A stretch of 55,655 nt of DNA from a virus (Duplodnaviria; Caudoviricetes), in IMG/VR virus record IMGVR_UViG_3300001686_000006, positions 1 to 55,655 of that record. The stretch is one strand, 5' to 3'. Numbering within the stretch: position 1 is the first letter of the stretch; each line of letters begins with the position of its first letter. Positions 27,675 through 50,309 of the stretch are shown one piece after another. Below the pieces are notes generated by a model that saw nothing but the letters and a program-made list of their open reading frames with translations, did no database searches and had not been told where the DNA came from. The position numbers were made by a program, and so were the translations under genes.

Positions 27675-27808
27675 ACTAGGAATCTTATTTGTCTGTTTTC
27701 TCGGGTTATTTGCAATCATGGTAATCTTTTTCATAGTTTCTGCACCAGGATTGTAAGGGTTTCGCGGCCAAAACACGGCCTATAATGAAACCCTATCAAA
27801 GGAGAGTA

Positions 27809-28147
27809 ATGTTTACCCAAACCGAAACCGAAACCAAGCTCGAAGCTGAGATACATTCTCTGCTCGCCAAGCTGAAGGAGACCACCAAGGATACCGAAGA
27901 ATACGGCATCCTCGTCGACCGCATGTCCAAGCTGCACAAGCTGAAGACCGATGAACAGACGCAGACGCAAAACGCAGAAGAACTTCTGCACAAGCTGAAG
28001 CCTGAAGAACGGTTCAAGCAGATCAGTCCGGACACCGTGCTCGTCGTTGTCGCCAATATATTTGGCATCCTGTGGCTCACTCGCTACGAGCGCGAACGCG
28101 TTATCAACAGCAAAGCGCTTGGCTTCGTGATGAGGCCCAACCGGTAA
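27809..28147 (+). CDS. Membrane-anchored phage protein
   Basis: AAGGAG SD; coiled coil then SPDTVLVVVANIFGILWL hydrophobic segment. Confidence 0.75.
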   Translation: MFTQTETETKLEAEIHSLLAKLKETTKDTEEYGILVDRMSKLHKLKTDEQTQTQNAEELLHKLKPEERFKQISPDTVLVVVANIFGILWLTRYERERVINSKALGFVMRPNR

Positions 28148-28344
28148 GCACTAGTCCTAAACGGGCTATCAAAGGGAGGGGCTCGTGTGAAATACACGGC
28201 CTCTCTTTTTTCAAAATTCAAAAAAATCCCGGGGGGAGATTTTCGTACAACGTTCAGATATTGACTCGTCTTTGTCATAGATACTGATTCGTGCTCGCGT
28301 ATATTTCCGGGCGTATAGTGATACCCACTACCCAAGGAGTTGTC

Positions 28345-28560
28345 ATGCCCAAGAAGTATGCCATTCGTATTACCGAGAACACCCTCGACCTCGTCACCGT
28401 TCTGAATTCGGGTGTGCGACCGCGGCGGGGAGAGGGGAATAACACCTATTTCCTCTTCGCCGTCGATTCGCCAAACACGACCACGGACCATGACGTCGTC
28501 CACATGGATGACCTCGCGATCTACGACGGCAACGATCCGGACCCCCGCATCATCCTTTAG
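28345..28560 (+). CDS. Cassette protein, AxxLTxEN family (divergent)
   Basis: Motif + AAGGAG SD + terminator; MPKKYAIRITENTLDLV. Confidence 0.75.
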   Translation: MPKKYAIRITENTLDLVTVLNSGVRPRRGEGNNTYFLFAVDSPNTTTDHDVVHMDDLAIYDGNDPDPRIIL

Positions 28561-28659
28561 TAGTATTCAAGACTGTAGAGCCCTGTAACACGGGCTCTCA
28601 GTTTTTCGCGTATATTTCAGGGCATGTAATAGATAACCCCACTAACCAAAGGAATTCAA

Positions 28660-28944
28660 ATGCCCTCATTTGATGTCTACGCAATCAAGCTCACGAACGA
28701 GAACATCCCCGCCATCGTCGCAGCCGCGCAGCCTCTCGGTTGGAACCTGGACCACCTTCAGGATAGCATGAGTGCCAATTTCGATGTTCTCTACTTTGAC
28801 ACCATGCTGTACATGAAGCTGTGGCACGGAACCATCGAGATCGCTACGTTCTCCGACGAGGCGCTGGATCCTAACTTCGAGCCCCGATTGACTAGCACCA
28901 TCGATCCGCTATTTGGACTTCTCTACAAGCTAGAGACCATCTAA
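28660..28944 (+). CDS. Cassette protein, AxxLTxEN family
   Basis: Motif + SD + terminator; YAIKLTNENIPAIV. Confidence 0.8.
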   Translation: MPSFDVYAIKLTNENIPAIVAAAQPLGWNLDHLQDSMSANFDVLYFDTMLYMKLWHGTIEIATFSDEALDPNFEPRLTSTIDPLFGLLYKLETI

Positions 28945-29035
28945 AGAGCGAGCCCCTAACACGGGCTTTCTCTTTTTCGCGTATATTTCAGGGCGTATAA
29001 TGAGATCCTAAACAACCTTACAAGGAGAACCAATT

Positions 29036-29329
29036 ATGCCCGAACCCATCCCTGGGAGCGTCATGCTCACGGACGATAACGTCGAACGCATTATTGAAGT
29101 TGCCGCTAAGCGCGGCTTCACGATTGGCCGCCTTCGCGACAGTATCAAATATCACGCCCGTCACGGCGATGAGACGATTCTGTTCACGTCGGTCTACCCG
29201 TGGAGCCAGCAGATCAGCAATTTCAACGATGTGCCGTTCGACTCGTCGATCCATCCCGCATCTGGCGTTCCTCTGATGACTACCGAGGAATTTCTGGCCC
29301 TGCTCGAAAGCACGCCCGAGATCTCATAA
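29036..29329 (+). CDS. Cassette protein, AxxLTxEN family
   Basis: Motif + SD + terminator; SVMLTDDNVERII. Confidence 0.8.
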   Translation: MPEPIPGSVMLTDDNVERIIEVAAKRGFTIGRLRDSIKYHARHGDETILFTSVYPWSQQISNFNDVPFDSSIHPASGVPLMTTEEFLALLESTPEIS

Positions 29330-29424
29330 AGGCAGGCCCGCAAACGCGGGCTTTCCTTTTTTGCACTATAGTCGCGGGAATTTCATGGAGTATAATAGAT
29401 AATCCCTAACAAAAGGAAAACACA

Positions 29425-29697
29425 ATGACCACTCATATTTTCGCTACCCAGCTTACTGAAGAAAACATGGACGCTATTGTCGCCTATGGCGCCGAGCATC
29501 ATCTGAACATTGAACATTTTCGCAATGAAATCGAGTTTTACGCCGAAGACGGCTTGAAACCCTATGTCATCGCGTCGATCGACATGGACACGGAGGAGCT
29601 TGTGCACATTACGACAAAAGACGATTTTACATTCTTCCTCAGCTGGAAGTTCATTGACGAGAAGTACAAGATGTTCACTCGCGTTACTGAAATCTAA
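29425..29697 (+). CDS. Cassette protein, AxxLTxEN family
   Basis: Motif + SD + terminator; FATQLTEENMDAIV. Confidence 0.8.
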   Translation: MTTHIFATQLTEENMDAIVAYGAEHHLNIEHFRNEIEFYAEDGLKPYVIASIDMDTEELVHITTKDDFTFFLSWKFIDEKYKMFTRVTEI

Positions 29698-29777
29698 AGC
29701 CAAGAGTCCCTAACACGGGCTCTAGCTTTTCGCGCATATTTCAGGGCATGTAATGACAACTAGCAAAGGAGAGACCT

Positions 29778-29891
29778 ATGCTCACGACAAAGCAGAAGCT
29801 TGCCGTCGCGCTTGTTCTGCGCATGCATAAGCTTGCAGGACATATTCTCGATGCCGCAGACGCTCTCGAGAGCCGAATCAATCCGCAGTAG
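29778..29891 (+). CDS. 37-aa cassette peptide (not in the ORF track)
   Basis: AAGGAG SD; MLTTKQKLAVALVLRMHKLAGHILDAADALESRINPQ; own motif and terminator. Confidence 0.75.
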   Translation: MLTTKQKLAVALVLRMHKLAGHILDAADALESRINPQ

Positions 29892-29998
29892 CTGTTTAAG
29901 ACTGCAGAGCCCTATTACAGGGGCTCTCAGTTTTTCTCAGGGGGTCTTCGCGTATATTTCAGGGCATATAATAGAAACTACTATCAAGGAGAATTGAA

Positions 29999-30202
29999 AT
30001 GTTTTTCAAGAAGCGCCAGCCCACTGAGATCGAGACCACCAAGATCATTCTGAACTACCTGAATGAGGAATTGCGAGCCTTGTGCCAGAACACCGACCCC
30101 GCTGTTCAGGACACGGTCAGCATCCGCCTCACCCAAGTTCAGAACATGATCTCCGGCCAGACTCAGAAGCTACAGCAACTTTATTGGCCATCACCATCCT
30201 AA
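29999..30202 (+). CDS. Cassette protein, helical hairpin
   Basis: Motif, AAGGAG SD, terminator. Confidence 0.75.
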   Translation: MFFKKRQPTEIETTKIILNYLNEELRALCQNTDPAVQDTVSIRLTQVQNMISGQTQKLQQLYWPSPS

Positions 30203-30295
30203 TAGAAATCTAAAGAGCGAGCCCCACACGGGCTTTCTCTTTTCGTTCGCGGGAATTTCATGGATTGTAATGAACCCCTACCAGAAAGAAACACC

Positions 30296-30379
30296 ATGAC
30301 CGACCTGCCGAAGACCGCCGTGATCACCATCAAGATCATCAACTTCATCGACTCGAAGTTCGACCGTTTCCGCAAGTAG
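30296..30379 (+). CDS. 27-aa cassette peptide (not in the ORF track)
   Basis: MTDLPKTAVITIKIINFIDSKFDRFRK; GC3-biased codons; between motif 30247 and terminator 30388. Confidence 0.65.
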   Translation: MTDLPKTAVITIKIINFIDSKFDRFRK

Positions 30380-30444
30380 TTTAATCGGAGAGTCCACACG
30401 GACTTTCTTTTTTTTTATTCGCGTATTTTTCACGTCCTATAATA

Positions 30445-30575
30445 GAAAGGAGATCGGACTAAACCCCGATTCCGAGATACGCATGTGCGGGAGAAACCCC
30501 CGCCCGGAGTGCAACCACAAGACAGGTTGCTAAAGATAGTTTGCCTTAGGCTATCGCCTCCTTTCCCTTTTTTTT
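30445..30575 (+). ncRNA. Multi-arm small RNA cassette 1
   Basis: Closing stem GAAAGGAG/CTCCTTTC with four internal hairpins and a U-tract; no SD-led ORF. Confidence 0.7.
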
Positions 30576-30630
30576 CGCGGATATTTCCGGGCCTATAATG
30601 AGAACAAAATCAAATTTTAGGAGACACTAA

Positions 30631-30789
30631 ATGGACCGTGAGCGAATCAAGCTCGAAGTTTATGTGGACCTCGACCCGGTTCCCGGTACCTTCCATTCCA
30701 AGGAAAGCGCCCAGAACGTGGTGAGGAATATACTGAACGGAGCTATTCCGCATTACAACCCAACTGTAAGTATCGCCCAAGACAAATAG
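30631..30789 (+). CDS. 52-aa cassette protein (not in the ORF track)
   Basis: AGGAG SD; MDRERIKLEVYVDLDPVPGTFHSKESAQ... Confidence 0.75.
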   Translation: MDRERIKLEVYVDLDPVPGTFHSKESAQNVVRNILNGAIPHYNPTVSIAQDK

Positions 30790-30885
30790 CTCTCAAGAGA
30801 GAAGCCCTAACCGGTTTCTCTTTTTTTTGTCTTCGCGGATTTTTCAGGGCATATAATGACAACCAAACCTATCCAGGAGAATCCC

Positions 30886-31047
30886 ATGACCAATCCCGCC
30901 GATGAAGCTATCTGCATGTTGATCGAAGATCTGACCCGTCGCGCCACTCGTCTCACCACGAATGCCGAAGAGCGTCAGAACTACATCAATCAGATCGCTC
31001 AGCTCCGTGCGTCGATGAATCCCCAGATCATCCAGCAGGTCCGGTAA
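30886..31047 (+). CDS. Cassette protein
   Basis: AGGAG SD; MTNPADEAICMLIEDL... Confidence 0.75.
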   Translation: MTNPADEAICMLIEDLTRRATRLTTNAEERQNYINQIAQLRASMNPQIIQQVR

Positions 31048-31138
31048 CAAAACGCGAGCCCTTCACGGGCTTTCGTTTTTTCACTATAGTCGCGGGAATT
31101 TCATGGTATGTAATGAACCCCTAACAAAGGAATCCAAC

Positions 31139-31297
31139 ATGACTTTCAAGCATGCTGCCAAGACCACCGCCTACGCCATCGGCATGTTCGTCTTCCCCGT
31201 CAAACCCAAGACGACGGAGAAACCGTTCGATATTGATGCGCATGCCGCGGCCGTTCAAGCCAGCTGGCACGAAGCCACCAAGGACTTTACCAAGTAG
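31139..31297 (+). CDS. Cassette protein
   Basis: AAGGA SD; MTFKHAAKTTAY... Confidence 0.7.
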   Translation: MTFKHAAKTTAYAIGMFVFPVKPKTTEKPFDIDAHAAAVQASWHEATKDFTK

Positions 31298-31403
31298 TTC
31301 AAAAGCCCAGAACCCCTAACACGGGTTCTAGCTTTTTTCCTGCAATTCGCGGGAATTTCATGGCCTGTAATAGAAGAAGATCACATCTATACAGGAGAAT
31401 CAC

Positions 31404-31598
31404 ATGACCATCCAGATCACCATCCCGAACCCGAAGACCGCCTACAACTACGCCAAGTATTTTCACCAGCTGAATCGCGAGAACAAGAAGTTCCGCAATC
31501 AGCTCCGTGAGGAGAAGCGCTACGAGAAGCGCATTCGTAAGTCCCAGGAGAAGATCGGTACCTACGTGCCCCCCACCTGCAAGACCATCTACGCCTAA
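31404..31598 (+). CDS. Basic cassette protein
   Basis: AGGAG SD, motif and terminator. Confidence 0.75.
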   Translation: MTIQITIPNPKTAYNYAKYFHQLNRENKKFRNQLREEKRYEKRIRKSQEKIGTYVPPTCKTIYA

Positions 31599-31686
31599 AG
31601 GCGAGCCCCCTAATACGGGGCTTTCCTTTTTTTCGCGGATATTTCATGGCCTGTAATGAGACCAAATCTATCCGGAAGGATTCATC

Positions 31687-31893
31687 ATGAAGGACGCCAT
31701 CAACGAGAAGGCCGTCTCCGTCAAGAACCATATCATTCACCACCGCGCCAAGTACGCTTCCGCAGCCACCCTCGTGGTCTGCTATAAGCTGCACCGAGTC
31801 TCGGTGAAGCAGTGGTATGCGTTCCTGGAGGAGAAGGGCATCGACCCGACGGAGTTCCTCCTGCCCGAACATTTCGCAGAGATGCACTCATAA
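31687..31893 (+). CDS. Cassette protein
   Basis: AAGGA SD, motif and terminator. Confidence 0.75.
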   Translation: MKDAINEKAVSVKNHIIHHRAKYASAATLVVCYKLHRVSVKQWYAFLEEKGIDPTEFLLPEHFAEMHS

Positions 31894-31953
31894 AGCTATG
31901 AGCCCTTAATTGGGCTCTAGTTTTTTTTTCAATACACAAGGAGCAGAATTAAA

Positions 31954-32397
31954 ATGAGACTTCTGGTTTCAGATCGAACGTCCCATCCTCGTCGTTGGCA
32001 TGTAAAGAAGCCGATGTCGAAAAAGACAGTGTGCGATCTACCTATGCTGGGTATGCGGGATCGAAAGCATGCTGATACGCCCATCCCGTGTGTCGAATGT
32101 TTCGCGTATATTTCACCCACTATAATGACACAACACTACCAAAGGAGTACCATGTCCACCGAGTCCTCCGAGCCCAAGCTCGAAAGCGCCCCGGAGCCCG
32201 AGACCGTCAAGCCGTCCAAGCTGAAGCGCATCAAGTCCGCCGCCACTGTTGCCGGAATCTACGCGATTCCCGTCACCATGGTGGGTGGTCTGATGCTGTT
32301 CAGCTACAAGACGAGCCAGATGGACCTCGAGGCTGCCAGGCTCAACTTCGAAGCCGCCAAACTCACCCGCCTCGCCGACGCTGCTACCCAGCAGTAG
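31954..32397 (+). CDS. Membrane protein (main start 32152) with an in-frame upstream His/Cys-rich extension from 31954
   Basis: AAGGAG SDs before both ATGs; motif copy 32102 lies inside the extension. Confidence 0.65.
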   Translation: MRLLVSDRTSHPRRWHVKKPMSKKTVCDLPMLGMRDRKHADTPIPCVECFAYISPTIMTQHYQRSTMSTESSEPKLESAPEPETVKPSKLKRIKSAATVAGIYAIPVTMVGGLMLFSYKTSQMDLEAARLNFEAAKLTRLADAATQQ

Positions 32398-35201: not shown

Positions 35202-35536
35202 TGAACAAAAAACAGCAAATTGTCGATCTGGTCAGAGCGCAACCGGGGATTTCCAGTCAAGATATTTCTAAAACGCTGGGAATTACTCGAGTTGAACTCA
35301 GCGCGCATACGTCTTATCTGCGCGATGTCAAAAACCAGATATACAACCAAGGTAAAAATGGTCGCTCGTTTCTGTGGTATCCGGTTACCGCAGAAACCGA
35401 AGATCAGATTCCGTTTATCCACGAAGCTCGAGCCATACTCAAAGATCTGCAACAAACGCCTGTAGCCCATCGAGAACGGCGTTTGGCTAAGCTGTTAAGC
35501 GAGCGAGAAGCTTCGCGGGAAAAACACATCCTATAA
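35201..35536 (+). CDS. Winged-helix DNA-binding protein
   Basis: GAGGAG SD; QIVDLVRAQPGISSQDISKTLGITRVELSAHTSYL. Confidence 0.75.
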   Translation: MNKKQQIVDLVRAQPGISSQDISKTLGITRVELSAHTSYLRDVKNQIYNQGKNGRSFLWYPVTAETEDQIPFIHEARAILKDLQQTPVAHRERRLAKLLSEREASREKHIL

Positions 35537-38187: not shown

Positions 38188-38244
38188 AGAAGGGAGGAAC
38201 ATAGCCAACTAACCTAGCAAGTTAGCTTGGCTCTCTCTTTTTTT
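38188..38244 (+). ncRNA. Small RNA cassette 5 (bulged hairpin)
   Basis: AAGGGAG/CTCTCTT, AGCCAA/TTGGCT, CTAAC/GTTAG, U-tract, directly after motif 38163. Confidence 0.55.
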
Positions 38245-38275
38245 CCGCCCACCAAGTTCGAGAAAGGCCAGGAGA

Positions 38276-39076
38276 GTGCAGTTTCTCAACGATGTAAAGC
38301 AGAAGGCCACGGTGTTCGCAGAAGCGAACGCGGCTGCTCTGCTCACCGCGGGAGGTGTTGTCGGCACAGTCGCCACCGCAATCCTCACCGGACGCGCCGG
38401 ATTCAAGGCGCACGAAATCCTTCAGACTCTGGAGATGGAAGCAAAGCTCAAGGCGAATAGCTTCGAAAACGACGGCGGAACCGAAGTGGTTTCGCCGACC
38501 ACGTTCGAGAAGTTCGTCGCTGTCGGACCGCAGTTCATTCCGCCGGTCATCGTCGGCGGAGCCACGATCGCCAGTATCGTCATGGCCAATCGAGTGTCGG
38601 CTCAGAAGGCTGCCGCTTTGGCTGCGGCTTACGGGCTGGCCGAGCGCAATCTCTCCGAGTACAAGGAGAAGATCAGCGAGAAGCTCACCGGTCCGAAGAA
38701 GCAGCAACTCGAGGAAGAGCTCTCACAGGATCGAGTCAACCGGACCGACGGTTACCAGAACATCGTCATCGTGGAAGGCGAAGTTCTGTGTTTCGACGAG
38801 CCCACGGGTCGATATTTCCGCAGCACGATGGAGAAGATTCGTAAGGCGGTGAACACCACCAACGCGGAGATCCTCCACTCCGGCTGGGCCAATGCGACCT
38901 TCTTCTACCATGAGCTCGGGCTTACCGCCACGTCATGGACTGACGACATGGGCTGGAACACCGATCAGCTCTTGGATTTGAAGTACGATACGGTCAGATC
39001 GCCGGATGATCGGCCGTGCCTGTCCATCGACTTCACCGTCCTGCCGAAGCCGGATTACGTCCCAAAGCACTTTTAG
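38276..39076 (+). CDS. Conserved phage protein (DUF6353-like), paralogue of 43939..44886
   Basis: N-terminal hydrophobic helices, AALAAAY...Y.EK, GRYF and MGW motifs. Confidence 0.7.
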   Translation: MQFLNDVKQKATVFAEANAAALLTAGGVVGTVATAILTGRAGFKAHEILQTLEMEAKLKANSFENDGGTEVVSPTTFEKFVAVGPQFIPPVIVGGATIASIVMANRVSAQKAAALAAAYGLAERNLSEYKEKISEKLTGPKKQQLEEELSQDRVNRTDGYQNIVIVEGEVLCFDEPTGRYFRSTMEKIRKAVNTTNAEILHSGWANATFFYHELGLTATSWTDDMGWNTDQLLDLKYDTVRSPDDRPCLSIDFTVLPKPDYVPKHF

Positions 39077-39381
39077 ACCGACTCGAAGCACCCGAGCTCC
39101 GGTTGATGCCCTGGTATATTCAGCAGCACCGCCAGTGGCATCACCGGGGGAGTCGGTCTGATGGTCCTCGGACCAAACCACCGATAGCGAGCAGCATGGA
39201 AGTGGCGCAAGGGTATCCAACTAACAGAAACCCACGTCGGTGGTTGAACAAGTTAAAGTCAGAGAAGAAGATAAAGTCGAAGCAGTATATACTCAACGAT
39301 CAATGGGGCGATCCGTCCTTGATTCTTGATCGGTCTTTCTTTCTCGACGAATGAACAGCAATCAAATTAGGAGAGTCCAAA

Positions 39382-39477
39382 ATGAAGATGCCCTTTCGCC
39401 GTCGTAAGCAGACCCGGAAGCAGCGTCTGGCCGAAGCTTTCGTCCGGATGATGGAGAACTGGTCGAAGCAGCGGTAA
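39382..39477 (+). CDS. 31-aa basic peptide (not in the ORF track)
   Basis: TAGGAGAG SD; MKMPFRRRKQTRKQRLAEAFVRMMENWSKQR. Confidence 0.6.
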   Translation: MKMPFRRRKQTRKQRLAEAFVRMMENWSKQR

Positions 39478-39520
39478 GCCTAAATTTCGCACTATCCCCA
39501 AACAAGGAGAGTAACCCAAG

Positions 39521-39772
39521 ATGCTGGGTTTTACCAGCCTGAATCCTGCAGACGGATTCACCACGCCGCTCGGTGAACGAGAGGCTGTGCGTATCATCAT
39601 CACCGAACACGGACGGAGGGTGTTCAAGCAGAGCCTGCTTGGCAGTGCGGTGTTCGGCGTGGGACTCATGTTCACCCTCAACCGCTTCGGCAGCACGAAG
39701 TTGCGCAGCGAGGCGGCAGAAACCGTGGCCAAGGTGGCCGAGGCCGTGGAGCCCAGCGGAGTGACACGATGA
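39521..39772 (+). CDS. Membrane protein
   Basis: AAGGAG SD; central hydrophobic helix. Confidence 0.65.
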   Translation: MLGFTSLNPADGFTTPLGEREAVRIIITEHGRRVFKQSLLGSAVFGVGLMFTLNRFGSTKLRSEAAETVAKVAEAVEPSGVTR

Positions 39773-39933
39773 CCAAGTTCCTGCTTGGCGTCGCCGTGGG
39801 CTATGTGTTCAGCGACATGATCGATGAGCTCATCACTCGGATTCCCGACACCATGAAGGATTCCGAGCCAACCACACCGTCGCCGATGCCTCCGCCGACA
39901 TCAACCACGACCGCCAGTGAGGAGACTCTGTAA
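39769..39933 (+). CDS. 54-aa protein (not in the ORF track)
   Basis: ATGA overlap; MTKFLLGVAVGYVFSDMIDE..., Pro/Thr tail. Confidence 0.6.
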   Translation: MTKFLLGVAVGYVFSDMIDELITRIPDTMKDSEPTTPSPMPPPTSTTTASEETL

Positions 39934-40019
39934 TGAAGTTCATGCTCATTCTCCTTACTGCGTTTCTCGGTGTCGCCGCAGCTGCTTGGGCGATCGAGAA
40001 AGCGTTCATCAAGTCGTAA
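39933..40019 (+). CDS. 28-aa membrane peptide (not in the ORF track)
   Basis: GAGGAG SD, TAATG overlap; MKFMLILLTAFLGVAAAAWAIEKAFIKS. Confidence 0.6.
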   Translation: MKFMLILLTAFLGVAAAAWAIEKAFIKS

Positions 40020-40143
40020 ATAGGCGTTAAAGGACTCCCCAGGGATCGTATGTCCTGGGGCTAGGGTGGGGGTAGCTTCCTACAATTTGGAACGCGCCCC
40101 CACCCGCCGGTCTTTCCATTTCACAACCAGGAGAACTTCAGCC

Positions 40144-40725
40144 TTGCTGAAAAAGACGATTGTCTACGAGAACCCATTCACCCAGCAAATGGTGAGTGAG
40201 GAACATTACTTTCATATCTCCAAGGCTGATCTCATCGAGATGCAGATGGAGAATCTGAATGAGCCCGAGGTAATCAACCCGCAGACCGGGGCCAAGCTCG
40301 AGGGCTACCCGGCCATGCTGCAACGCATCGTCAACGACAAGGACGGCAAGGAGATCCTGGTCGTCGTCAAGGACATGGTGCGCCGAGCCTACGGCAAGAA
40401 ATCTGGAGACCGGTTTCTCCGCAGCCCAGAAATCTGGGAGGAGTTCATCTCCAGCGAAGCCTGGTCTCAGCTATATTTCGAATTATGCACCGACGCCGGT
40501 GCCCAAGCCGATTTCATGAACGGCATATTCCCCAGAGACATGCTGGAAGAAGCTAACAAACTTGCCGCCGCACAGGCGCAAACAAACGGAGACGTGTCTA
40601 CGCCCGAACAGGATGTTCCGGCTGACGTTTCCACACCCAGAGTCCTCACTAATCAAGAAGTGGCTGAGATGGACTCTGATGAACTTAAGTCCGGGCTGGC
40701 CACCGGGCGCTACAAGCTTTCGTAG
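40144..40725 (+). CDS. Conserved phage protein (possibly chaperone-like)
   Basis: AGGAG SD then TTG; LKKTIVY..EEHYFHISKADLIEM..AYGKKS..F..S. Confidence 0.65.
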   Translation: MLKKTIVYENPFTQQMVSEEHYFHISKADLIEMQMENLNEPEVINPQTGAKLEGYPAMLQRIVNDKDGKEILVVVKDMVRRAYGKKSGDRFLRSPEIWEEFISSEAWSQLYFELCTDAGAQADFMNGIFPRDMLEEANKLAAAQAQTNGDVSTPEQDVPADVSTPRVLTNQEVAEMDSDELKSGLATGRYKLS

Positions 40726-40908
40726 GACTGATTTTAGATCGCGCGAAGTAAATATCGGATACTAAAGAAGCAAAAAAAGCCGCGTCCATAGTAAGTGAAT
40801 CATGGAGTAGGCGAGATTCACCTTTGACTACCGGAGAGACAACCGGGAAAGAAGAACTCCACCGACGCGATCACATAATATTATAGCAAACCCAAGCTAG
40901 GAGAGTAT

Positions 40909-41160
40909 ATGCCAGACGAAGTTTCTACCACCACCACCGAAGCTGTCAAGAAGATGAGCGACGGGACCGTGAAGATCTCGGTCGAGAAATACAACGAGTT
41001 GCTCGAGAAGGCGGCCATCAAGCCTCCGGTGATCAACCGCACCATCGTCCACAAGACAGCCGAAATGCTCACTCAAGAGCATCAGGCGTGGGGAGCCACC
41101 TTCATGGGGGCGGGTGTGGCGCTCTTCGTCATCGGAGCATTCCGCTACAAATTCGCCTAG
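40909..41160 (+). CDS. C-terminally anchored membrane protein
   Basis: TAGGAG SD; C-terminal TM helix. Confidence 0.7.
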   Translation: MPDEVSTTTTEAVKKMSDGTVKISVEKYNELLEKAAIKPPVINRTIVHKTAEMLTQEHQAWGATFMGAGVALFVIGAFRYKFA

Positions 41161-41164
41161 ATCT

Positions 41165-41836
41165 TCTAGAGAGATGAGATTGCAGCAGTGTGGATCCTGG
41201 ACTTTATAACGCCAGCTTTGGGGTTATAAAGGGGTGGGAGCGGTCTAATAAACCGCCGCGACCAGATTGACCCCGCGCACTGCTCTCATATTCTCGAGAG
41301 GGATCAACGCTGTCTACTGGTGAAAAGCAGCATTAAGTTGGCTACAACATCCACTCCGGACGGCCGGTACACGGGTGAGATAGCCAGTAGACAGCACGAT
41401 CCGAATCAAATGCGAGCTCTCTTAGAGCTTATATTAGGAGGCCTATCTGGATCCGCAGTACGTGACCGTCTAACGACAGGCCAGTCGATCCGGAGATGGA
41501 GAAGTCTGATTACGGGGTAGGTCCGCATAGGACTAGAAGTTGGAAGGGGTAGATCAGACATATTAGTACAAGCGTCCTAGCGGACGGGTGAGGTCTCAAC
41601 ACTGGGGGTACTGCGGTGGCGCATACCTTAAACGATCACCTAAGCATACAAGATCTGGAGTATGCTGAAATGGCGCCCAGTGCTCGCTATCGCTAGCACT
41701 CATTTCTCCTAAAGGGTGTGATTTTAACTCAGGGGTACCAGCGGCTAATGCGCTCTGGTATTAAACGACAGCAAATGGCACGGTTTGGCAAGTTTTCTTG
41801 CCGAAATGCCCCACCGTCCGTACGCGCCCCTGACTT
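41165..41836 (+). ncRNA. Large structured non-coding region, about 670 nt (strand assumed)
   Basis: No SD-led ORF; more than ten stems including GCTGTCTACTGG/CCAGTAGACAGC and CCGCAGTAC/GTACTGCGG. Confidence 0.6.
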
Positions 41837-41899
41837 AATTTCGCGGGAATTTCATTGCCTATAATGAGAAGAAACCATATCCCTTTAAGGAGTATTTCA

Positions 41900-42181
41900 A
41901 TGACCACACCCGAGTTTACCGCTCGCAACGTCGCGAAATTCCTCGCGAAGGCAGTCGTCGCCACCAAGACGGCTCGTCTGACCGCCGATGTCGTGGCTGA
42001 CCACACCAACTACGAGAAGGACGACACCGTCGTCGATCTCGGTAGCCAGGTGGTCGGCTGGTACATCAGCGCGAAGCTCGAGCCCGTCACGGACAAGATC
42101 GTCGACACCACCGCAGACTTCGTCACCGAGCAGCGCAACAAGCGCCAGGCCAGGAGAGACGCCAAGAAGAAGGACCAGTAA
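41900..42181 (+). CDS. Cassette protein
   Basis: Motif 41841, AAGGAG SD, terminator 42189. Confidence 0.75.
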   Translation: MTTPEFTARNVAKFLAKAVVATKTARLTADVVADHTNYEKDDTVVDLGSQVVGWYISAKLEPVTDKIVDTTADFVTEQRNKRQARRDAKKKDQ

Positions 42182-42244
42182 ATCTCAGAAAGAGGATCCC
42201 TAACCCGGATTCTCTTTTTTTCTTAATTAGCGAAAGGATTCGCA

Positions 42245-42655
42245 ATGTCAGATCTGACCCAGCTTGTTGTCGGTCCGGGCGAGCCGGATAACGCTGAGCT
42301 CGGAGAGATTCTCGAACGATATCGAATAAATGCCGAGCTGTCACGCCGTGCCGCCGCAGCTCAGCTTGAGCTAAGTTCTGAGTACGTTCGTTTGGTCGAA
42401 CGAGGAAAGCGCACATTTACTCTCGGAATGATGCCGAAGGTACTGAGCATCTATGACATAACTTACGAACTTGAACTCGATCGAATTGTATTTGATCGTT
42501 ACTCCGTTCAATTCTCGAGTCGCATCCGAGAAGCTCGATACAAGGATATCGAACGTCCTAATCGAGACGAACGTCTTGGCCAAATAGTACGACTCTTGGC
42601 TATCACAGATGAGGAAACTCTGGACCAAATTTACCGAAGATTACTTCGCGGCTAA
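42245..42655 (+). CDS. XRE-family HTH regulator
   Basis: LGEILERYRINAELSRRAAAAQLELSSEYVRLVERGKR. Confidence 0.85.
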   Translation: MSDLTQLVVGPGEPDNAELGEILERYRINAELSRRAAAAQLELSSEYVRLVERGKRTFTLGMMPKVLSIYDITYELELDRIVFDRYSVQFSSRIREARYKDIERPNRDERLGQIVRLLAITDEETLDQIYRRLLRG

Positions 42656-42921: not shown

Positions 42922-43563
42922 ATGCAAGATTTTCCGCCCAATAGTGCCAAGGCGAGAGAACGATCTCAAGGACCGCCGTCAGATGAGCGCCGGACCAAGA
43001 TCGAGCAGGTCACTTCCGCCACGGCTGAACAGCGGAAGAAAGGATTGGGAGGTCGGTTCAAGGAGACTTTCATCGGTGGTAGTGCGCGCGATGCCGGAGA
43101 ATATATGATGATGGAAGTCATCATCCCGTCGGTCAGAGATTTAATGGCTGAAGCCGTCCACTCGCTCACCGATCGGATGATCTATGGCAATCAGCGTCCC
43201 CGGCGAGGTACGACCACATCTTCATATTCTGGTCTGGGACATGTCGACTATCAGGGAATGAGTCGTTCGAATCGGCCGCCTACTACTCGCACCTTGTCTC
43301 AGACCTCGAGAGCCCGTCACGACTTCGGGGAGATTGTCATCCCCAACCGCCAGGAAGCCGAAGAAGTGCTCGATCGGCTGTACGACGTGCTGTCTCAGTA
43401 CGGTTCGGTGCCAGTGGCCAATCTCTACGCGCTTACCGGAATCCAAAGCAGTCATGCAGATCACAAATGGGGATGGACTTCGCTGCGAGGAGCCAAGGTA
43501 GCTCGTCTCCGAAATGGCGGATATTTACTGGACCTACCCAACCCAGAGCCATTGGATAGATGA
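42922..43563 (+). CDS. Conserved phage protein
   Basis: GAGGAG SD; EAEEVLD....YGSV.VA.LY...KWGW..L motif. Confidence 0.75.
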   Translation: MQDFPPNSAKARERSQGPPSDERRTKIEQVTSATAEQRKKGLGGRFKETFIGGSARDAGEYMMMEVIIPSVRDLMAEAVHSLTDRMIYGNQRPRRGTTTSSYSGLGHVDYQGMSRSNRPPTTRTLSQTSRARHDFGEIVIPNRQEAEEVLDRLYDVLSQYGSVPVANLYALTGIQSSHADHKWGWTSLRGAKVARLRNGGYLLDLPNPEPLDR

Positions 43564-43823
43564 GTAAGAAGAAAAAAGAGTATCGGCCGAAACGAGCCGA
43601 CCGATCCTACGGATCCGACAGACCCAAAAGAGTGAACAAATCGGAGGAATTCCGGGTCTGCGATAAGCCAGGTTGTGCCAACGTTGTTTCAGTCGCCGAT
43701 AAGCCACGATATGCCGGACCGATCTATTGCGTATTACATCGAGAAAGTGAATCACATGGACGATTCTCCGAAAACGGAAACGGAACGTATAGCTCGTCCG
43801 CTTCCCTGCCCCGAGTGCAATAG
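43560..43823 (+). CDS. Hypothetical Cys/His-containing protein
   Basis: ATGA overlap; CDKPGC...YCVLH. Confidence 0.5.
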   Translation: MSKKKKEYRPKRADRSYGSDRPKRVNKSEEFRVCDKPGCANVVSVADKPRYAGPIYCVLHRESESHGRFSENGNGTYSSSASLPRVQ

Positions 43824-43929
43824 CACTAGAGGATATTCTCGAGTGGGTAAATTTCGCTCACAGTGTCTGAACTGTAATTCTCTGCTCAAGAACGCAGAGG
43901 TCAACCAAGAAGATCTAGATCCTCAATAA
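43756..43929 (+). CDS. Zinc-ribbon protein
   Basis: CPEC...CLNC. Confidence 0.6.
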   Translation: MDDSPKTETERIARPLPCPECNSTRGYSRVGKFRSQCLNCNSLLKNAEVNQEDLDPQ

Positions 43930-43938
43930 GGAGTCTTA

Positions 43939-44886
43939 ATGAAATTCATTCCACCCGCGATCAGTCGAAAGGTCGCTGAGCAAGGTCTACTTGCTCGCAA
44001 GAACTCGCCGACAATCCTGCTGGGAGTTGGCGTGGCCAGCATGGTGGGTTCCACGGTTTTGGCCTGCCGGGCAACCCTCAAACTTGACGACGTGCTGTCT
44101 GAGATCAACGCCGACAAGCAGAAGGCTGTTATGGCCAAGGAGAAGGTCGCCGCGGGTGAGGTTCCGGCCGGGACCACATATTCCGATCAGGAGTTCAAGC
44201 GCGACAATACGATCATCCTCACTCGTGGAGCGATCAGCATTGTCAAGCTGTATGCACCTTCGGTTATTCTCGGTGGCGTGGGCATTGTCTGCCTGACCAA
44301 GTCGCACCGGATTTTGCAGAATCGCAATTCGGCCTTGACTGCCGCCTATATCGCCGTGGATACGGCGTTCAAGAAGTATCGCGAACGAGTCGTCGATCGC
44401 TACGGCGAAGAGATCGACCGCGAACTCCGATATCCATCGGAGGAAGTCACGATCATCGACGAAGAAACCGGTAAGGCCTTCGATACGGTGCATGCGGCTC
44501 CGGGTGAGCCCTCAGGCTACGCGCGGTGGTTCGACGAGACGAACAGCAACTGGACTGCGGCACCGTTTGACAACAATAATTGGGTCTTTCTGCGTATGCA
44601 GCAGAATTGGGCCAATGATCAGCTTCACGCTCGGGGCCATCTGTTTCTCAACGAGGTCTATGCGATCTGTGGTCTACCCCATACTTCGGCCGGATCGGTA
44701 GTGGGCTGGCTGTACAAGCGCGACAACATCGCAGGCGACAACTGGGTCGACTTTGGCTGCTTCGATAAGCAGAATGGGCAACCGATCGAGTTCTTCAATG
44801 GTCGTGAAGGGGCGATTCTCCTCGATTTCAATGTCGACGGGTTGATCTGGGACAAGATCGACCAGAGCGTTGAGAACAGCTCATGA
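43939..44886 (+). CDS. Conserved phage protein (DUF6353-like)
   Basis: KNSPTILL, ALTAAY..F..YRERV, GHLFLNEVY, VGW, LLDFNVDG. Confidence 0.75.
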   Translation: MKFIPPAISRKVAEQGLLARKNSPTILLGVGVASMVGSTVLACRATLKLDDVLSEINADKQKAVMAKEKVAAGEVPAGTTYSDQEFKRDNTIILTRGAISIVKLYAPSVILGGVGIVCLTKSHRILQNRNSALTAAYIAVDTAFKKYRERVVDRYGEEIDRELRYPSEEVTIIDEETGKAFDTVHAAPGEPSGYARWFDETNSNWTAAPFDNNNWVFLRMQQNWANDQLHARGHLFLNEVYAICGLPHTSAGSVVGWLYKRDNIAGDNWVDFGCFDKQNGQPIEFFNGREGAILLDFNVDGLIWDKIDQSVENSS

Positions 44887-46481: not shown

Positions 46482-49400
46482 ATGGATTTCTATCAGATCC
46501 GGGTACGAGAAACGAAGGACAAGCTCTTAGAGCTATATCCAGACTTCGTCATCGGCCGTTCTGAGGATCTGATGGTCCAGGGTGGAAAGTTCTATGCCAT
46601 CTGGGATCCCGAGAAGGAACTATGGTCTAGAGATGAGTACGATGTGCAACGACTCGTCGATGAGGATTTGCTCCAGGAGAAGGAGAGACTGCAACGGGAA
46701 ACCGGGCAGACGTACACCGTAAAGTTCATGCGGTCGTTTCACTCCAACTCCTGGGCGCATTTCCGGAAATTCATGTCGAATATTTCCGACAACAGCCATC
46801 CGCTGGATAACAAGCTGGTGTTCGCCAATACCGAGGTGAAGAAGACCGATTACGCTAGCCGCAAACTCCCATACGCTATCGGAGAAGGGGATATCTCCGC
46901 ATGGGATGAGCTGATGTCTACACTATATTCACCTGATGAGCGGGATAAGGTGGAATGGGCGATTGGCTCTATCATTGCTGGCGATTCAAAGAAGATCCAG
47001 AAGTTCTTGGTCTTCTACGGACCACCGGGTACCGGGAAATCAACGGTTCTGAACATTATTCAAAAGCTATTCGAAGGCTACACAACCTCCTTCGATGGCA
47101 AAGCCCTAGGGTCATCCAACTCGCAATTTGCCACTGAGGCATTCAGGTATAATCCGCTGGTAGCAATTCAACACGACGGAAACCTGAGTCGCATCGAGGA
47201 CAATGCGCGGCTGAACTCGATCGTCGCTCATGAACAGATGACGATGAACGAAAAGTATAAGGCGTCATATTCTTCGCGAATTGATGCCATGCTGTTCCTG
47301 GGATCTAATCAACCGGTAAAGATCTCTGACGCCAAGTCAGGCATCATTCGTCGGTTGATCGATATTCATCCTACAGGAATCAAGTTCGGGTCCAAGCATT
47401 ATCAGGCGCTCCTGACTCAGATTGACTTTGAACTTGGTGCCATAGCGCACCATTGCCTCACTGTTTATTTGAGTATGGGCAAAAATTTCTACAATGCTTA
47501 TCGCCCGTTGGAGATGATGCTGCAAACCGACATCTTCTTCAACTTTATCGAAGCCCACTTCGACGTGTTCAAAGGCCAGGATTACACCACGTTGAAGCAG
47601 GCATATTTGCTCTACAAGGAATACTGCTCGGAAAGTGGGATCGAACGGCCTTTGCCCCAATACAAGATGCGCGAAGAACTGCGCAACTACTTCGATGAGT
47701 TCAAGGATCGAGCCGAGATCGACGGCGAAACTGTTCGTAGCGTGTATCGAGGGTTCACGGCAGAGAAGTTCAAGGCGCCCAAAGATGACAAGACCGCATT
47801 CTCATTGGTCTTGGAAGAGACGATATCTCTCCTGGATGAGGATCTAGCGTCGTGTCCGGCTCAGCTCGCGAATGCCAACGGAATGCCTTCCAAGCGATGG
47901 TCAAATGTACAGACCACCCTGACAGATATTGATTCGCGAGAAACTCATTACGTAAAAGTTCCAGAAAATCACGTGGTGATCGATTTCGATCTCAAGGATC
48001 AGAATGGCGATAAGGGTTTGGAACGAAATCTGGATGCGGCTTCGCATTGGCCTGCGACGTATGCAGAAATCAGCCGTTCTGGTTCGGGGATTCATCTGCA
48101 CTATATTTACGAGGGAAATCCCGCTGAGCTCGCTCCCATGTTCGCCGAGGGAATCGAGATCAAGGTCTATTCTGGTGATGCTGCGCTACGAAGGAAACTG
48201 TCGCTCTGCAACGCAGTGCCCGTGGCAAAGATCAGCTCGGGGTTGCCGCTCCGAGAGAGAAAGGATAAGATGCTTAAGGACAAGACGATTCAGAGCGAAC
48301 AAGGATTGCGGGCACTGATCCTACGGAATCTGCGCAAAGAGATCCATCCGGGAACCAAACCCTCGATCGATTTCATCAAGAAGATTCTCGACGACGCTTA
48401 TGAATCGGGCATGAAGTACGACGTAACTGATCTGCGTAGCCGAATCGTAGCCTTTGCCAACAACTCGTCCAATCAGGCCTCGGCGGCTCTGAAGGTGGTC
48501 ACCGAGATAAAATGGGCCTCGGCTGACGCTGGAGAGACCAAGGAAGAGGCATTCACGGCCGAGCATAAGGTAGAGGTATCCGACGATCGACTGGTGTTCT
48601 TCGACGTCGAGGTATATCCCAATCTGTTTGTGATCGCCTGGAAGTTCCAAGGGTCATCCGAAGTGGTGCGAATGATCAACCCCAAGCCGCACGAAGTGGC
48701 TGAGTTGTTCAAGTTGAAGCTGGTGGGCTTCTACAATCGTCGTTACGACAACCATATTATCTATGCCGCGGCCATGGGCGCCAGCACAGAGGAACTGTTC
48801 CGCTTGAGCACCAAGCTCATCGAGGGAAACCGCTCGGCTACCTTTGCCCAGGCCTACAATCTGTCCTACGCCGATATTTGGGACTTCTCGGTAGAGAAGA
48901 TGAGCCTGAAGAAATTCGAGATCAAACTCGGAATTCTGCACATGGAGTTGGATCTGCCCTGGGATCAACCGGTGGATAAGAAACACTGGTCTCGTGTGGT
49001 GGAATATTGTGTCAACGATGTAATCGCTACTGAAGTCGTGTTCGAGGATCGTAAAGCTGATTTCGTGGCTCGGCAAATTCTGGCTGAGCTATCTGGGCTC
49101 ACAGTCAATGACACCACGCAAACTCATACGGCCAAGATCATATTCGGCGATGACGTCAAGACGGCAAACAAGCAGTTCGTCTACACCGATCTCTCAAAGG
49201 ATTTCCCGGGGTACAAGTTCGAGCTGGGTAAGAGCTATTACAAGGGCGAAGAGCCAGGAGAGGGTGGCTATGTCTACGCTGAACCGGGAATGTATGAGAA
49301 CGTAGCGGTATTGGACGTTGTGAGCATGCATCCCAAGAGCATTGACCTACTTAATCTTTTCGGCCCGTATACGAAAAATTACGCTGCGCTTACAGAGGCT

Positions 49401-50309
49401 CGAATAGCGATCAAGCACCAAGACTATGACAAGGCGCGTTCGTTGCTCAATGGTCGGCTAGCCCCGTTTCTAGAGGGAGCTGAGAACGACCGAGCAGATC
49501 GTCATGGTACTGAGTTAGCTTTCGCTCTACGCATTGCCCTCAATATCGTCTACGGCCTTACTTCCGCCAAATTTGATAACCCCTTCCGGGATATTCGTAA
49601 CGTCGACAATATTGTCGCCAAGCGCGGCGCATTATTTATGATCGACCTGAAACAGGCTCTGCAGGAACAAGGCTTTCAGGTGATCCATATCAAGACGGAT
49701 TCCGTGAAAATCCCTAATGCTACTCCCGAAGCCATCGCTGCGGTGAAGACGTTGGGCTCGTTCTATGGGTATGAGTTCGATCACGAAGAAACCTACGACA
49801 GGTTCTGCCTGGTCAACGATGCGGTCTACGTGGGCGGAATCCTCACTGTTCCTTGGGAAGAGGGTCATCCGAAATACCACTGGACCGCAGTAGGGGCCCA
49901 ATTCCAACACCCCTATGTGTTCAAGACGCTGTTCTCAAATGAGCCGCGCACGTTTTACGACTATTGTGAAGCTCGAAGCGTGTTGAAGGGCACGATGTAT
50001 ATCTATACAGGCTCTGAGAAGCCCGTTAACGGTGTTCTCAGCGCCACCCCTAAGCAATTACGACATGTGGGTAGGACCGGCCTGTTTGTGCCTGTAGAGA
50101 GCGGTGGCGGTGCCTTGTACCGAGTCTATGAAGATAAGTATTACGCCGTGAGCGGCACCAAGGGTCATTTGTGGATGGAAGCGGATCTGGCGATTGAAGC
50201 TGGAGAGAAGGATGACCTGAAGATCGACATGACATATTTCGATAAGCTGAAGAACGACGCGGTCAAGGCGATCGACCAATTCGGGCCGTTCGAGGCATTT
50301 GTAAGCTAG
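46482..50309 (+). CDS. Helicase (SF3/D5-like) - primase (AEP-like) - 3'-5' exonuclease - family B-like DNA polymerase fusion
   Basis: Walker A GPPGTGKST; VIDFD and SRSGSGIHLHY; FFDVEVY, NRRYD, YCVNDV; LDVVSMHP, RIALNIVYG, HIKTDS. Confidence 0.88.
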   Translation: MDFYQIRVRETKDKLLELYPDFVIGRSEDLMVQGGKFYAIWDPEKELWSRDEYDVQRLVDEDLLQEKERLQRETGQTYTVKFMRSFHSNSWAHFRKFMSNISDNSHPLDNKLVFANTEVKKTDYASRKLPYAIGEGDISAWDELMSTLYSPDERDKVEWAIGSIIAGDSKKIQKFLVFYGPPGTGKSTVLNIIQKLFEGYTTSFDGKALGSSNSQFATEAFRYNPLVAIQHDGNLSRIEDNARLNSIVAHEQMTMNEKYKASYSSRIDAMLFLGSNQPVKISDAKSGIIRRLIDIHPTGIKFGSKHYQALLTQIDFELGAIAHHCLTVYLSMGKNFYNAYRPLEMMLQTDIFFNFIEAHFDVFKGQDYTTLKQAYLLYKEYCSESGIERPLPQYKMREELRNYFDEFKDRAEIDGETVRSVYRGFTAEKFKAPKDDKTAFSLVLEETISLLDEDLASCPAQLANANGMPSKRWSNVQTTLTDIDSRETHYVKVPENHVVIDFDLKDQNGDKGLERNLDAASHWPATYAEISRSGSGIHLHYIYEGNPAELAPMFAEGIEIKVYSGDAALRRKLSLCNAVPVAKISSGLPLRERKDKMLKDKTIQSEQGLRALILRNLRKEIHPGTKPSIDFIKKILDDAYESGMKYDVTDLRSRIVAFANNSSNQASAALKVVTEIKWASADAGETKEEAFTAEHKVEVSDDRLVFFDVEVYPNLFVIAWKFQGSSEVVRMINPKPHEVAELFKLKLVGFYNRRYDNHIIYAAAMGASTEELFRLSTKLIEGNRSATFAQAYNLSYADIWDFSVEKMSLKKFEIKLGILHMELDLPWDQPVDKKHWSRVVEYCVNDVIATEVVFEDRKADFVARQILAELSGLTVNDTTQTHTAKIIFGDDVKTANKQFVYTDLSKDFPGYKFELGKSYYKGEEPGEGGYVYAEPGMYENVAVLDVVSMHPKSIDLLNLFGPYTKNYAALTEARIAIKHQDYDKARSLLNGRLAPFLEGAENDRADRHGTELAFALRIALNIVYGLTSAKFDNPFRDIRNVDNIVAKRGALFMIDLKQALQEQGFQVIHIKTDSVKIPNATPEAIAAVKTLGSFYGYEFDHEETYDRFCLVNDAVYVGGILTVPWEEGHPKYHWTAVGAQFQHPYVFKTLFSNEPRTFYDYCEARSVLKGTMYIYTGSEKPVNGVLSATPKQLRHVGRTGLFVPVESGGGALYRVYEDKYYAVSGTKGHLWMEADLAIEAGEKDDLKIDMTYFDKLKNDAVKAIDQFGPFEAFVS

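Follow-up and report, generated by a model that had tools for sequence, protein, structure and literature searches.

The window analyzed here is a complete virus record of IMG/VR, 55,655 nucleotides (nt) in length with an estimated completeness of 94%, and represents a soil actinophage. This report concerns the interval 41161-41899, which lies between the stop codon of the short open reading frame (ORF) g83 (41160) and the ATG of the ORF g93 (41900), downstream of a gene of the PF23803 family. Positions 41161-41838 form a tandem array of five separately folding modules, named M1, M2, module A, M4, and M5. Two of these, M4 and M5, represent an apparently undescribed family with a three-way junction, referred to as famB, and module A is a second undescribed motif. 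Related loci are given L numbers, P1 to P3 denote the helices of famB, and R1 and R2 are its covariance models. The features of the locus are the following.

40144 to 40725, + strand: PF23803 (Phage_TAC_17)-like gene (Pfam PF23803, E 1.4e-37; phrog_4282), the conserved upstream partner of famB.
40909 to 41160, + strand: g83, an ORF of 83 amino acids (aa) with a hydrophobic C-terminus, between the PF23803-like gene and the array.
41161 to 41175, + strand: short palindrome ATCTTCTAGAGAGAT, read from the sequence, a CTAGAG-type linker palindrome or hairpin such as stands before each module.
41176 to 41288, + strand: M1, a branched fold closed by AGCAGTG/CACTGCT, with the hairpins CTTTATAAC/GTTATAAAG and GCGGTC..ACCGC (minimum free energy [MFE] z -3.70; 0 of 200 shuffles).
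41301 to 41402, + strand: M2, a long hairpin with a branched top, in which GGATC..GATCC surrounds the 12-bp stem GCTGTCTACTGG/CCAGTAGACAGC (z -4.74; 0 of 200 shuffles).
41414 to 41430, + strand: linker hairpin GAGCTCT-CTT-AGAGCTT before module A, paired by eye.
41437 to 41560, + strand: module A, a two-domain motif with homologues in L039 (95.6%), L050, L042/L041, and L045.
41574 to 41585, + strand: linker hairpin GTCC-TAGC-GGAC; behind it stands GGGTGAGGTCTCAAC, which corresponds to GGTGGGGTCTCAC of the relatives.
41595 to 41691, + strand: M4, a famB copy (R2 19.2 bits, E 0.0069, in an unfiltered search of the whole window) whose MFE fold is identical (z -2.14).
41724 to 41842, + strand: M5, a famB copy (R1 106.6 bits, R2 101.3 bits; alignment A3; z -4.48).
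41841 to 41866, + strand: early-type promoter TCGCG-N14-TATAAT, which adjoins the end of M5 (41838-41842) and drives g93.
41900 to 42181, + strand: g93, a 93-aa ORF, the gene of a promoter-gene-terminator cassette.
42187 to 42219, + strand: canonical intrinsic terminator, a 13-bp stem followed by a T run, which ends the g93 cassette.

The interval 41161-41899 is non-coding, as had been claimed in the preliminary description of this DNA, which found no credible ORF in it. The longest ORFs inside it measure 66, 51, and 48 aa. Homologues beneath the 66-aa ORF are separated by gaps of 14, 20, and 1 columns (alignment A6), so that no conserved reading frame underlies it. The eight stem pairs named in that description are all exact reverse complements (41184/41278, 41202/41223, 41309/41384, 41434/41706, 41453/41608, 41643/41660, 41729/41827, and 41600/41676). 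Inverted repeats in 41161-41838 were compared with 300 dinucleotide shuffles of the same positions. Six inverted 9-mers are present against a mean of 0.82, an approximately 7-fold excess that 4 of the 300 shuffles reach. In addition, one inverted 12-mer was found against none in the shuffles (0/300), and 22 inverted 7-mers against 13.6 (15/300). The + strand of 41161-41900 folds with an MFE of -268.7 kcal/mol (z -4.83; none of 20 shuffles as good), and the - strand gives a z of -3.94.

No known RNA class could be assigned to the array. A cmscan search of the whole window against Rfam returned no matches at the gathering score. When 40900-42000 was searched with E values up to 10, the sole matches were CRISPR-DR13, at 18.3 bits where the gathering score is 37, and SAM-SAH, at 14.7 where it is 40, and the weak SAM-SAH match falls inside the g83 coding sequence. 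The Rfam 15 models matched none of 20 related loci at the gathering score and none of seven isolate loci at E values up to 1. ARAGORN detected no tRNA or transfer-messenger RNA in the window. Of 39 related loci, 38 were likewise negative; three tRNAs, located elsewhere, were found in L022.

Loci for comparison were gathered through the polymerase (29 viral loci) and by alignment of the PF23803-like protein (80 metagenome loci), while seeding with the phrog_4079 protein yielded no related loci. The 739-nt gap was then compared with 112 loci by blastn and nhmmer. This revealed 13 distinct foreign contigs, each of which matches one piece of the gap and never the whole. Query positions of approximately 250-420 (module A) match L039, L050, L042, L041, and L045; positions of approximately 415-500 (M4) match L048; and positions of approximately 520-680 (M5) match L025, L043, L046, L050, L054, L056, L058, and L059. 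Positions 1-230 (M1 and M2) have no match beyond the source contig of the window itself in these searches.

The arrays of the relatives differ in module content, order, and copy number. The slot behind the PF23803-like gene contains a single famB in L054 and L046, two in L025, L056, L058, and L059, and three in L043. Module A occurs together with famB in L045 and L050, and without M1, M2, or M4 in L042 and L050. Related linkers, CTCTCCTAGAGAG and TTCTCTAGAA, recur between the modules of relatives. These arrays also share non-coding modules that are absent from the window (L025:4918-4998 with L045:4884-4964; L039:2896-3043 with L050:4965-5123; and L006:5385-5461 with L050:5482-5558 and L025:5146-5226), and these extra modules are 79 to 91% identical between arrays.

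The preliminary description had read the interval as one multi-domain RNA of about 670 nt, comparable to GOLLD and ROOL. The low folding energy of the whole stretch (z -4.8) is consistent with this idea, and two long-range pairs, of 9 bp (41453/41608) and 7 bp (41434/41706), do exist in the window. Their partners, however, are missing in the relatives. L039 and L050 keep CCGCAGTAC, and GTACTGCGG is absent anywhere in either locus; TTAGGAG/CTCCTAA is likewise partnerless in both. In the window, GTACTGCGG pairs locally, in P2 of M4. Furthermore, the modules occur separately in relatives, each closes on its own stem, and the models of GOLLD and ROOL gave no match. A single large ornate RNA held together by long-range helices is therefore hardly tenable. 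What stands of the structured-RNA proposal is a non-coding region with conserved RNA structure that belongs to no Rfam family. Homologues were found for module A, M4, and M5, and none for M1 and M2, and famB covaries. Three of the named pairs, TCAGGGG/CCCCTGA, CACTGGG/CCCAGTG, and AGCATAC/GTATGCT, are helices confirmed by comparison (P1 of M5, P1 of M4, and P3 of M4, respectively). The second of these had been offered as a possible crossing pair and is instead the local P1.

The famB layout consists of a P1 helix of 7 to 13 bp with a G-rich 5' side; a P2 helix with 4 to 5 covarying outer base pairs, a bulge, and a conserved AGCG/CGCU core; the junction UUAAACGACAGC; a variable or missing P3; and a GCG directly before the 3' strand of P1. 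In M4, these elements correspond to P1 CACTGGG/CCCAGTG, P2 GGTACTGCG..CGCATACC, junction TTAAACGATCAC, P3 AGCATAC/GTATGCT, and the GCG before the P1 3' strand. M5 has P1 TCAGGGG/CCCCTGA, P2 TACCAGCG..CGCTCTGGTA, junction TTAAACGACAGCAAATGG, P3 CACGG..CCGTC, and ACGCG at the latter position. Both copies carry the full set of defining traits, namely P1, the P2 core, UUAAACGACAGC, GCG, the sense strand, and a location downstream of the PF23803-like gene. They lie on the + strand, 870 to 1,117 nt past the stop codon of this gene, with g83, M1, M2, and module A in between. A partial orthologue of M4 is present at L048:1823-1878.

Base-pair covariation supports this structure. Among nine M5-type sequences (A3), both sides have changed in 10 of 27 pairs. 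The models R1 and then R2 recovered diverged tandem copies, with 20 R2 matches in 14 of 81 sources. In the model-fitted alignment of 19 distinct famB sequences, 92.7% of the cells are paired, compared to 75.4% after shuffling, and both sides have changed in 18 of the 27 pairs. None of 500 shuffles reaches any measure for this first set, and slid controls give 32 to 51%. A second set of 27 distinct IMG/VR sequences was found by sequence pattern and was not used in building the model. Here, 89.0% of the cells are paired (72.4% in shuffles) and both sides have changed in 19 of 27 pairs; no shuffle out of 500 reaches four of the five measures, and one reaches the fifth, the number of doubly changed pairs. 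When 15 isolate elements were aligned with MAFFT alone, RNAalifold yielded only four pairs because P1 and P3 were misaligned, and the model-guided alignment was taken instead. The 38 G.U cells, compared to 12 A.C cells, place the structure on the + (sense) strand. We are highly confident that famB is a genuine structured RNA.

Module A spans approximately 125 nt and is represented by five sequences. Its first domain contains the covarying hairpin CTGGATC..GATCCGG with a variable tip, and its second an invariant stem, GTCTGATTAC/GTAGATCAGAC, around the covarying hairpin GGTCC/GGACT. The conserved single-stranded blocks are GGAGGCC, GATGGAGAA, GGGGTAGG, and GTTGGAAGGGG. Both sides have changed in 6 of 27 pairs in alignment A6, and the presence of 17 G.U cells and no A.C cell points to the + strand for this module. 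As its free energy is unremarkable (z +1.05), conservation is the basis on which module A is recognized. The R2 model scores only 7.8 bits (E 4.8) on M1.

A plain blastn search of 41100-41900 against 50,697 phage records gave no match at E 1e-5; famB was found only through the covariance models and the isolate version of the element. A strict DNA pattern for M5 retrieved only the contig of L025 from IMG/VR. In L025, L054, L056, and others, famB lies 6 to 20 nt past the stop codon of the PF23803-like gene. With filters off, R2 locates famB in the unannotated gap right behind this gene in Rhodococcus phage ReqiPoco6 (19.2 bits), Gordonia phages Gravy (17.2 bits) and OhMyWard (12.9 bits), Streptomyces phages Scarif (21.8 bits) and Annihilus (20.0 bits), and Arthrobacter phage GantcherGoblin (14.1 bits). 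JoyLin (7.4 bits) and NapoleonB (7.2 bits) have weak R2 scores, and both show the UUAAACGAC motif. The isolate famB carries a conserved P2 extension, GCAAGGG..GUAGGGGUC..CCUA..CCGGAUGC.

The 131-nt Annihilus element matches 69 isolate records by blastn (47 of Gordonia, 18 of Streptomyces, and 4 of Rhodococcus phages) at approximately 75 to 80% identity, and almost all of these matches have no annotated feature beneath them. The neighboring protein is less than 60% identical to the copy of the window in all 200 isolate records. A pattern of the isolate version retrieved 40 stretches from IMG/VR, 29 of which were confirmed by R2; in each of these 29, a PF23803-like match on the same strand ends 10 to 229 nt upstream. 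In the collection of bacterial genomes, the same pattern produced 37 stretches, compared to approximately 70 expected by chance according to our own estimate. R2 confirmed none of the 37, and these were discarded as chance matches. In L022, a weak famB-like match (14423-14496; R1 13.4 bits, E 0.96) extends just into the beginning of a tRNA-Lys gene (14493-14566) in the cluster of three tRNAs and may be due to chance. A full-text literature search of main texts, covering non-coding RNAs of actinophages as well as the 12-nt motifs, returned nothing on the famB element, with motif matches only in unrelated papers.

The primase-polymerase of the window (46482-50309) shares approximately 60% identity with its counterparts in Gordonia cluster DJ phages and in the Rhodococcus phages ReqiPoco6 and ReqiPepy6, and the neighboring DUF6353, PF23803 "Phage_TAC_17," and phrog_4079 genes are syntenic with these phages. 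Metagenome contig L036, identical to the window over the array region, measures 76,796 nt compared to the 55,655 nt of the viral record, which may be a trimmed part of a longer assembly.

The ORF of the PF23803-like gene is open from 40066, and its start at 40144 was chosen by aligning relatives (alignment A2). The acidic character of the encoded protein is apparent from sequence inspection. Its AF2 model has a pLDDT of 86.5 and matches no fold in the PDB (best Foldseek E 0.33; best VIA-align Z 3.7). Queries of BFVD with this model retrieved orthologues only, apart from a pre-tape-measure chaperone that is weakly similar (E 0.03). The modeled fold thus offers no hint of RNA binding in either database, leaving gene linkage as the argument for a ribonucleoprotein. 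The family is named after a tail assembly chaperone, and the genes of the window and of the isolates sit among early and replication genes instead. In the window, the gene is flanked by two DUF6353 paralogues (38276-39076 and 43939-44886), far from the tape-measure gene (18460-24312), and the family name may not describe its role here. A frameshift or read-through signal for this gene was also considered and rejected by reading: no slippery heptamer precedes the stop codon, no extended frame follows it, and the +1 ORF ends at 40765. The g83 ORF occupies the same position in L039 and is located elsewhere in L006 and L025. In the structural module of the window, 9-nt periodic repeats at 9308-9514 correspond to collagen-like Gly-X-Y triplets in a 222-aa ORF (9174-9842).

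The promoter behind M5 belongs to a recurrent type. Its motif, TCGCG-N14-TRTAAT(G/A), occurs 21 times on the + strand of the window and twice on the - strand. Fifteen of the 21 copies lie in 27762-32127, the others at 35513, 36352, 36484, 38163, 41841, and 42646. Between 27.7 and 32.1 kb, promoters alternate with canonical terminators every 170 to 750 nt, forming mini-cassettes of promoter, tiny gene, and terminator with few ORFs above 80 aa. The same motif (TCGCA/G..TATAGTGAGA) is found ahead of genes in ReqiPoco6, JoyLin, Caterpillar, Ingrid, and Qui. In 38188-41841, promoter motifs and canonical terminators are both absent, which identifies the array as the tail of the unit that starts at promoter 38163 and includes the PF23803-like gene and g83.

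This operon-end slot takes several forms in the group. A promoter directly follows the element in the window, L046, L054, L058, and ReqiPoco6. In Caterpillar, Ingrid, Qui, and L026, the slot contains a plain G+C-rich hairpin that abuts or overlaps the TCGCA of the promoter, and no comparable hairpin or famB was found in the slot of L007, L008, and L017. Across the group, the slot ranges from these forms without comparable hairpin or famB, over a plain hairpin and one famB, to an array of up to approximately 1.3 kb.

Downstream of g93, a helix-turn-helix (HTH) gene (42245-42655) and the phrog_4079 gene (42922-43563) start approximately 25 nt past two strong terminators (42187 and 42870), and neither gene has its own promoter motif. 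Since the motif is also absent between 42646 and the genome end, expression of the replication module seems to depend on read-through of terminators or on a different type of promoter. In phage HK022, the put RNA modifies the polymerase that reads through it. By analogy, the array could be a polymerase-modifying RNA that allows passage of both terminators toward the promoterless genes, or a riboswitch or attenuator for the downstream gene. The need for read-through is consistent with the first of these, and the distance of only 33 to 46 nt between famB and the next start codon in isolates would suit either, as would the conserved junction, which resembles a binding pocket. However, a promoter separates famB from the gene behind it in the window, L046, L054, L058, and ReqiPoco6, and the transcripts of that gene lack famB. 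The downstream gene also varies (a peptidase or various hypothetical proteins), while the upstream one stays the same; models of known riboswitches gave no match, and tandem multiplication is not expected of a ligand sensor. We consider such a cis-regulatory role quite improbable. A leader riboswitch can be discarded for the window, where the next promoter (41841-41866) lies behind M5; some isolates have no mapped promoter.

RNA libraries provide an indication that part of the array is transcribed. Six soil metatranscriptome runs contain 30 to 43% of the sampled words of 40900-42200, and the assembled contigs of four of these runs, from four studies, were aligned to the window. All four runs have contigs with 0 to 1 differences on parts of 41152-41591, corresponding to M1, M2, and module A. 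All four also have contigs on 41876-42178, the g93 cassette from just past the -10 hexamer to just before the terminator; these start at 41876-41909 and run to 42103-42178. The bins 40211-40813, 42221-42622, and 43025-44000 are empty in each of the four. In run X16 (record 13), a contig matches module A at 41401-41563 and continues with the sequence that lies behind module A in L039, which indicates that a second phage of the group is present in the same soil RNA library.

The presence of the region in RNA libraries also bears on a DNA-level explanation, according to which the pairing reflects hairpins in single-stranded DNA, as in a replication origin, single-strand priming signals, or operator palindromes of the HTH protein. 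The array lies approximately 1 to 5 kb upstream of the replication genes, including the primase-polymerase, its short palindromes recur, and folding energies do not separate the two strands. Covariation that preserves pairing is nevertheless not expected of double-stranded protein sites, and the excess of G.U cells confines the structure to the sense strand. Moreover, even where genomes are rearranged, the element stays with the 3' end of the same gene. Taken with the library contigs, this makes a DNA-level function very improbable.

Contigs from two of the RNA runs end at 41590 and 41591, within a linker. These ends are compatible with a trans-acting function in which the modules are cut from the operon tail, with the linkers as processing sites, or are transcribed from weak -10-like sites of their own (TATATT and TATTCT). 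They would then act as small RNAs or protein decoys against, for example, a host nuclease, RNA polymerase, or a defense system. Conserved linker palindromes between the modules and a junction that is invariant across host genera fit this proposal, and copy number and content change quickly, a behavior typical of loci that interact with the host. Abundant non-coding RNAs of unknown role are also recorded for other actinophages (PMC10986025). The phage genome, however, shows no excess of sites complementary to the junction (3 compared to 3.4 expected, one of which is the motif itself), the plain hairpin or empty slot of relatives fits a dispensable cis element better, and the fold of the partner protein gives no clue. 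A trans-acting function is, in our judgment, unlikely.

We assign a probability of roughly 55% to the reading that 41161-41838 is an operon tail of five autonomous modules that serve as elaborated operon-end elements. The main reason to regard famB as an operon-end or insulator element is the series of slot forms, from empty to plain hairpin to famB to array. According to this proposal, the modules would fold as the RNA is made and, once folded, would either halt RNA polymerase or hold off exonucleases where the upstream message ends. The next promoter would thereby be insulated and stable RNA tails would be left. For famB itself, end-of-operon termination or stabilization as the core role is a tentative assignment that we hold at somewhat below even odds. 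An added function, for example protein docking, is suggested by the invariant junction and by conservation in phages of different host genera; the junction is probably where a host or phage protein docks.

Several observations weigh against the operon-end reading. Two scans of 41161-41838 found no hairpin followed by a T run, though the phage has canonical terminators elsewhere; short AUAUUU tracts stand behind P1 in several isolates, and weak termination there is possible. No contig of the four RNA runs covers M4 and M5 (41592-41875), which is evidence neither way and lends no support, and assembled contigs convey no strand, ends, or levels and may include DNA carry-over. The structure of M1 and M2 is deduced from thermodynamics, since they have no homologues, and module A combines five known sequences with an unremarkable free energy. 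The alignments used to count famB pairs were fitted to the model, which favors pairing. With respect to position, the match in Ingrid (16.9 bits) is an exception that lies upstream of the PF23803-like gene and not downstream. Searches without filters did not detect famB behind the gene in any of the five intermediate relatives L007, L008, L010, L012, and L026, nor was it detected in Qui, DoctorPepper, or either of two oral/gut siphovirus contigs. Finally, an invariant 12-nt junction and cross-genus conservation exceed the needs of a barrier hairpin, and the real role may differ.

A more far-reaching interpretation takes the locus as a new class of phage RNA system, a fast-evolving, expandable array of autonomous structured RNAs anchored 3' of the PF23803-like gene that would be more than a terminator. 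It would serve either as the equivalent, in a bacterial virus, of the decay-barrier arrays in 3' untranslated regions of RNA viruses, leaving stable non-coding RNA tails, or as protein decoys against host RNA turnover or defense. We consider this rather doubtful.

Among known phage RNAs, GOLLD (RF01998) and ROOL (RF03087) resemble the array in being phage-borne, non-coding, many-stemmed, and of unknown function. They differ in that their covariance models do not match here, at the gathering score or at E values up to 10, and in that the domains of the array were not found to be inherited together. The array is composed of independent units of 85 to 150 nt, whereas GOLLD and ROOL form one fold of 400 to 800 nt. 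The 3' untranslated regions (UTRs) of flaviviruses contain tandem exoribonuclease-resistant RNAs (xrRNAs) and dumbbells, three-way-junction modules whose copy number and order vary between lineages; xrRNAs are defined by a ring-like pseudoknot. By analogy, the array may be compared to them as a set of three-way-junction modules behind a coding region, with tandem duplicates and variable copy number and order. The likeness is one of fold layout, in the DNA genome of a bacterial virus and with no Rfam match in the window. Intrinsic terminators and REP-like 3' stabilizer hairpins share the location at the end of a unit before the next promoter, as illustrated by the plain hairpin in the slot of relatives. 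In contrast to these, famB is branched, has an invariant 12-nt junction and no T run, and is conserved far more across host genera. Intergenic non-coding RNAs of unknown function are reported to be among the most transcribed loci of the cluster A and CA actinophages D29, Kampy, and WC1 (PMC10986025). These belong to unrelated phage clusters and resemble the array by description; the passages on them describe no structure family or link to one gene.

The famB element is unannotated in at least 69 sequenced isolate phages that are propagated on laboratory strains of Gordonia, Streptomyces, and Rhodococcus; it is also present in dozens of soil viral contigs, and it was not found in Rfam 15 or in the searched literature. 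Since it is present in cultured phages for which genetic tools exist, its function is open to direct tests. The progression from an empty slot to a plain hairpin, a three-way junction, and a 1.3-kb array offers a rare view of how a simple operon-end hairpin may grow into a complex RNA. To our knowledge, Hfq-type small-RNA biology is largely absent in Actinobacteria. If the modules do act as decay barriers or decoys, they would represent an added RNA-based layer in phage gene expression or host takeover in these bacteria.

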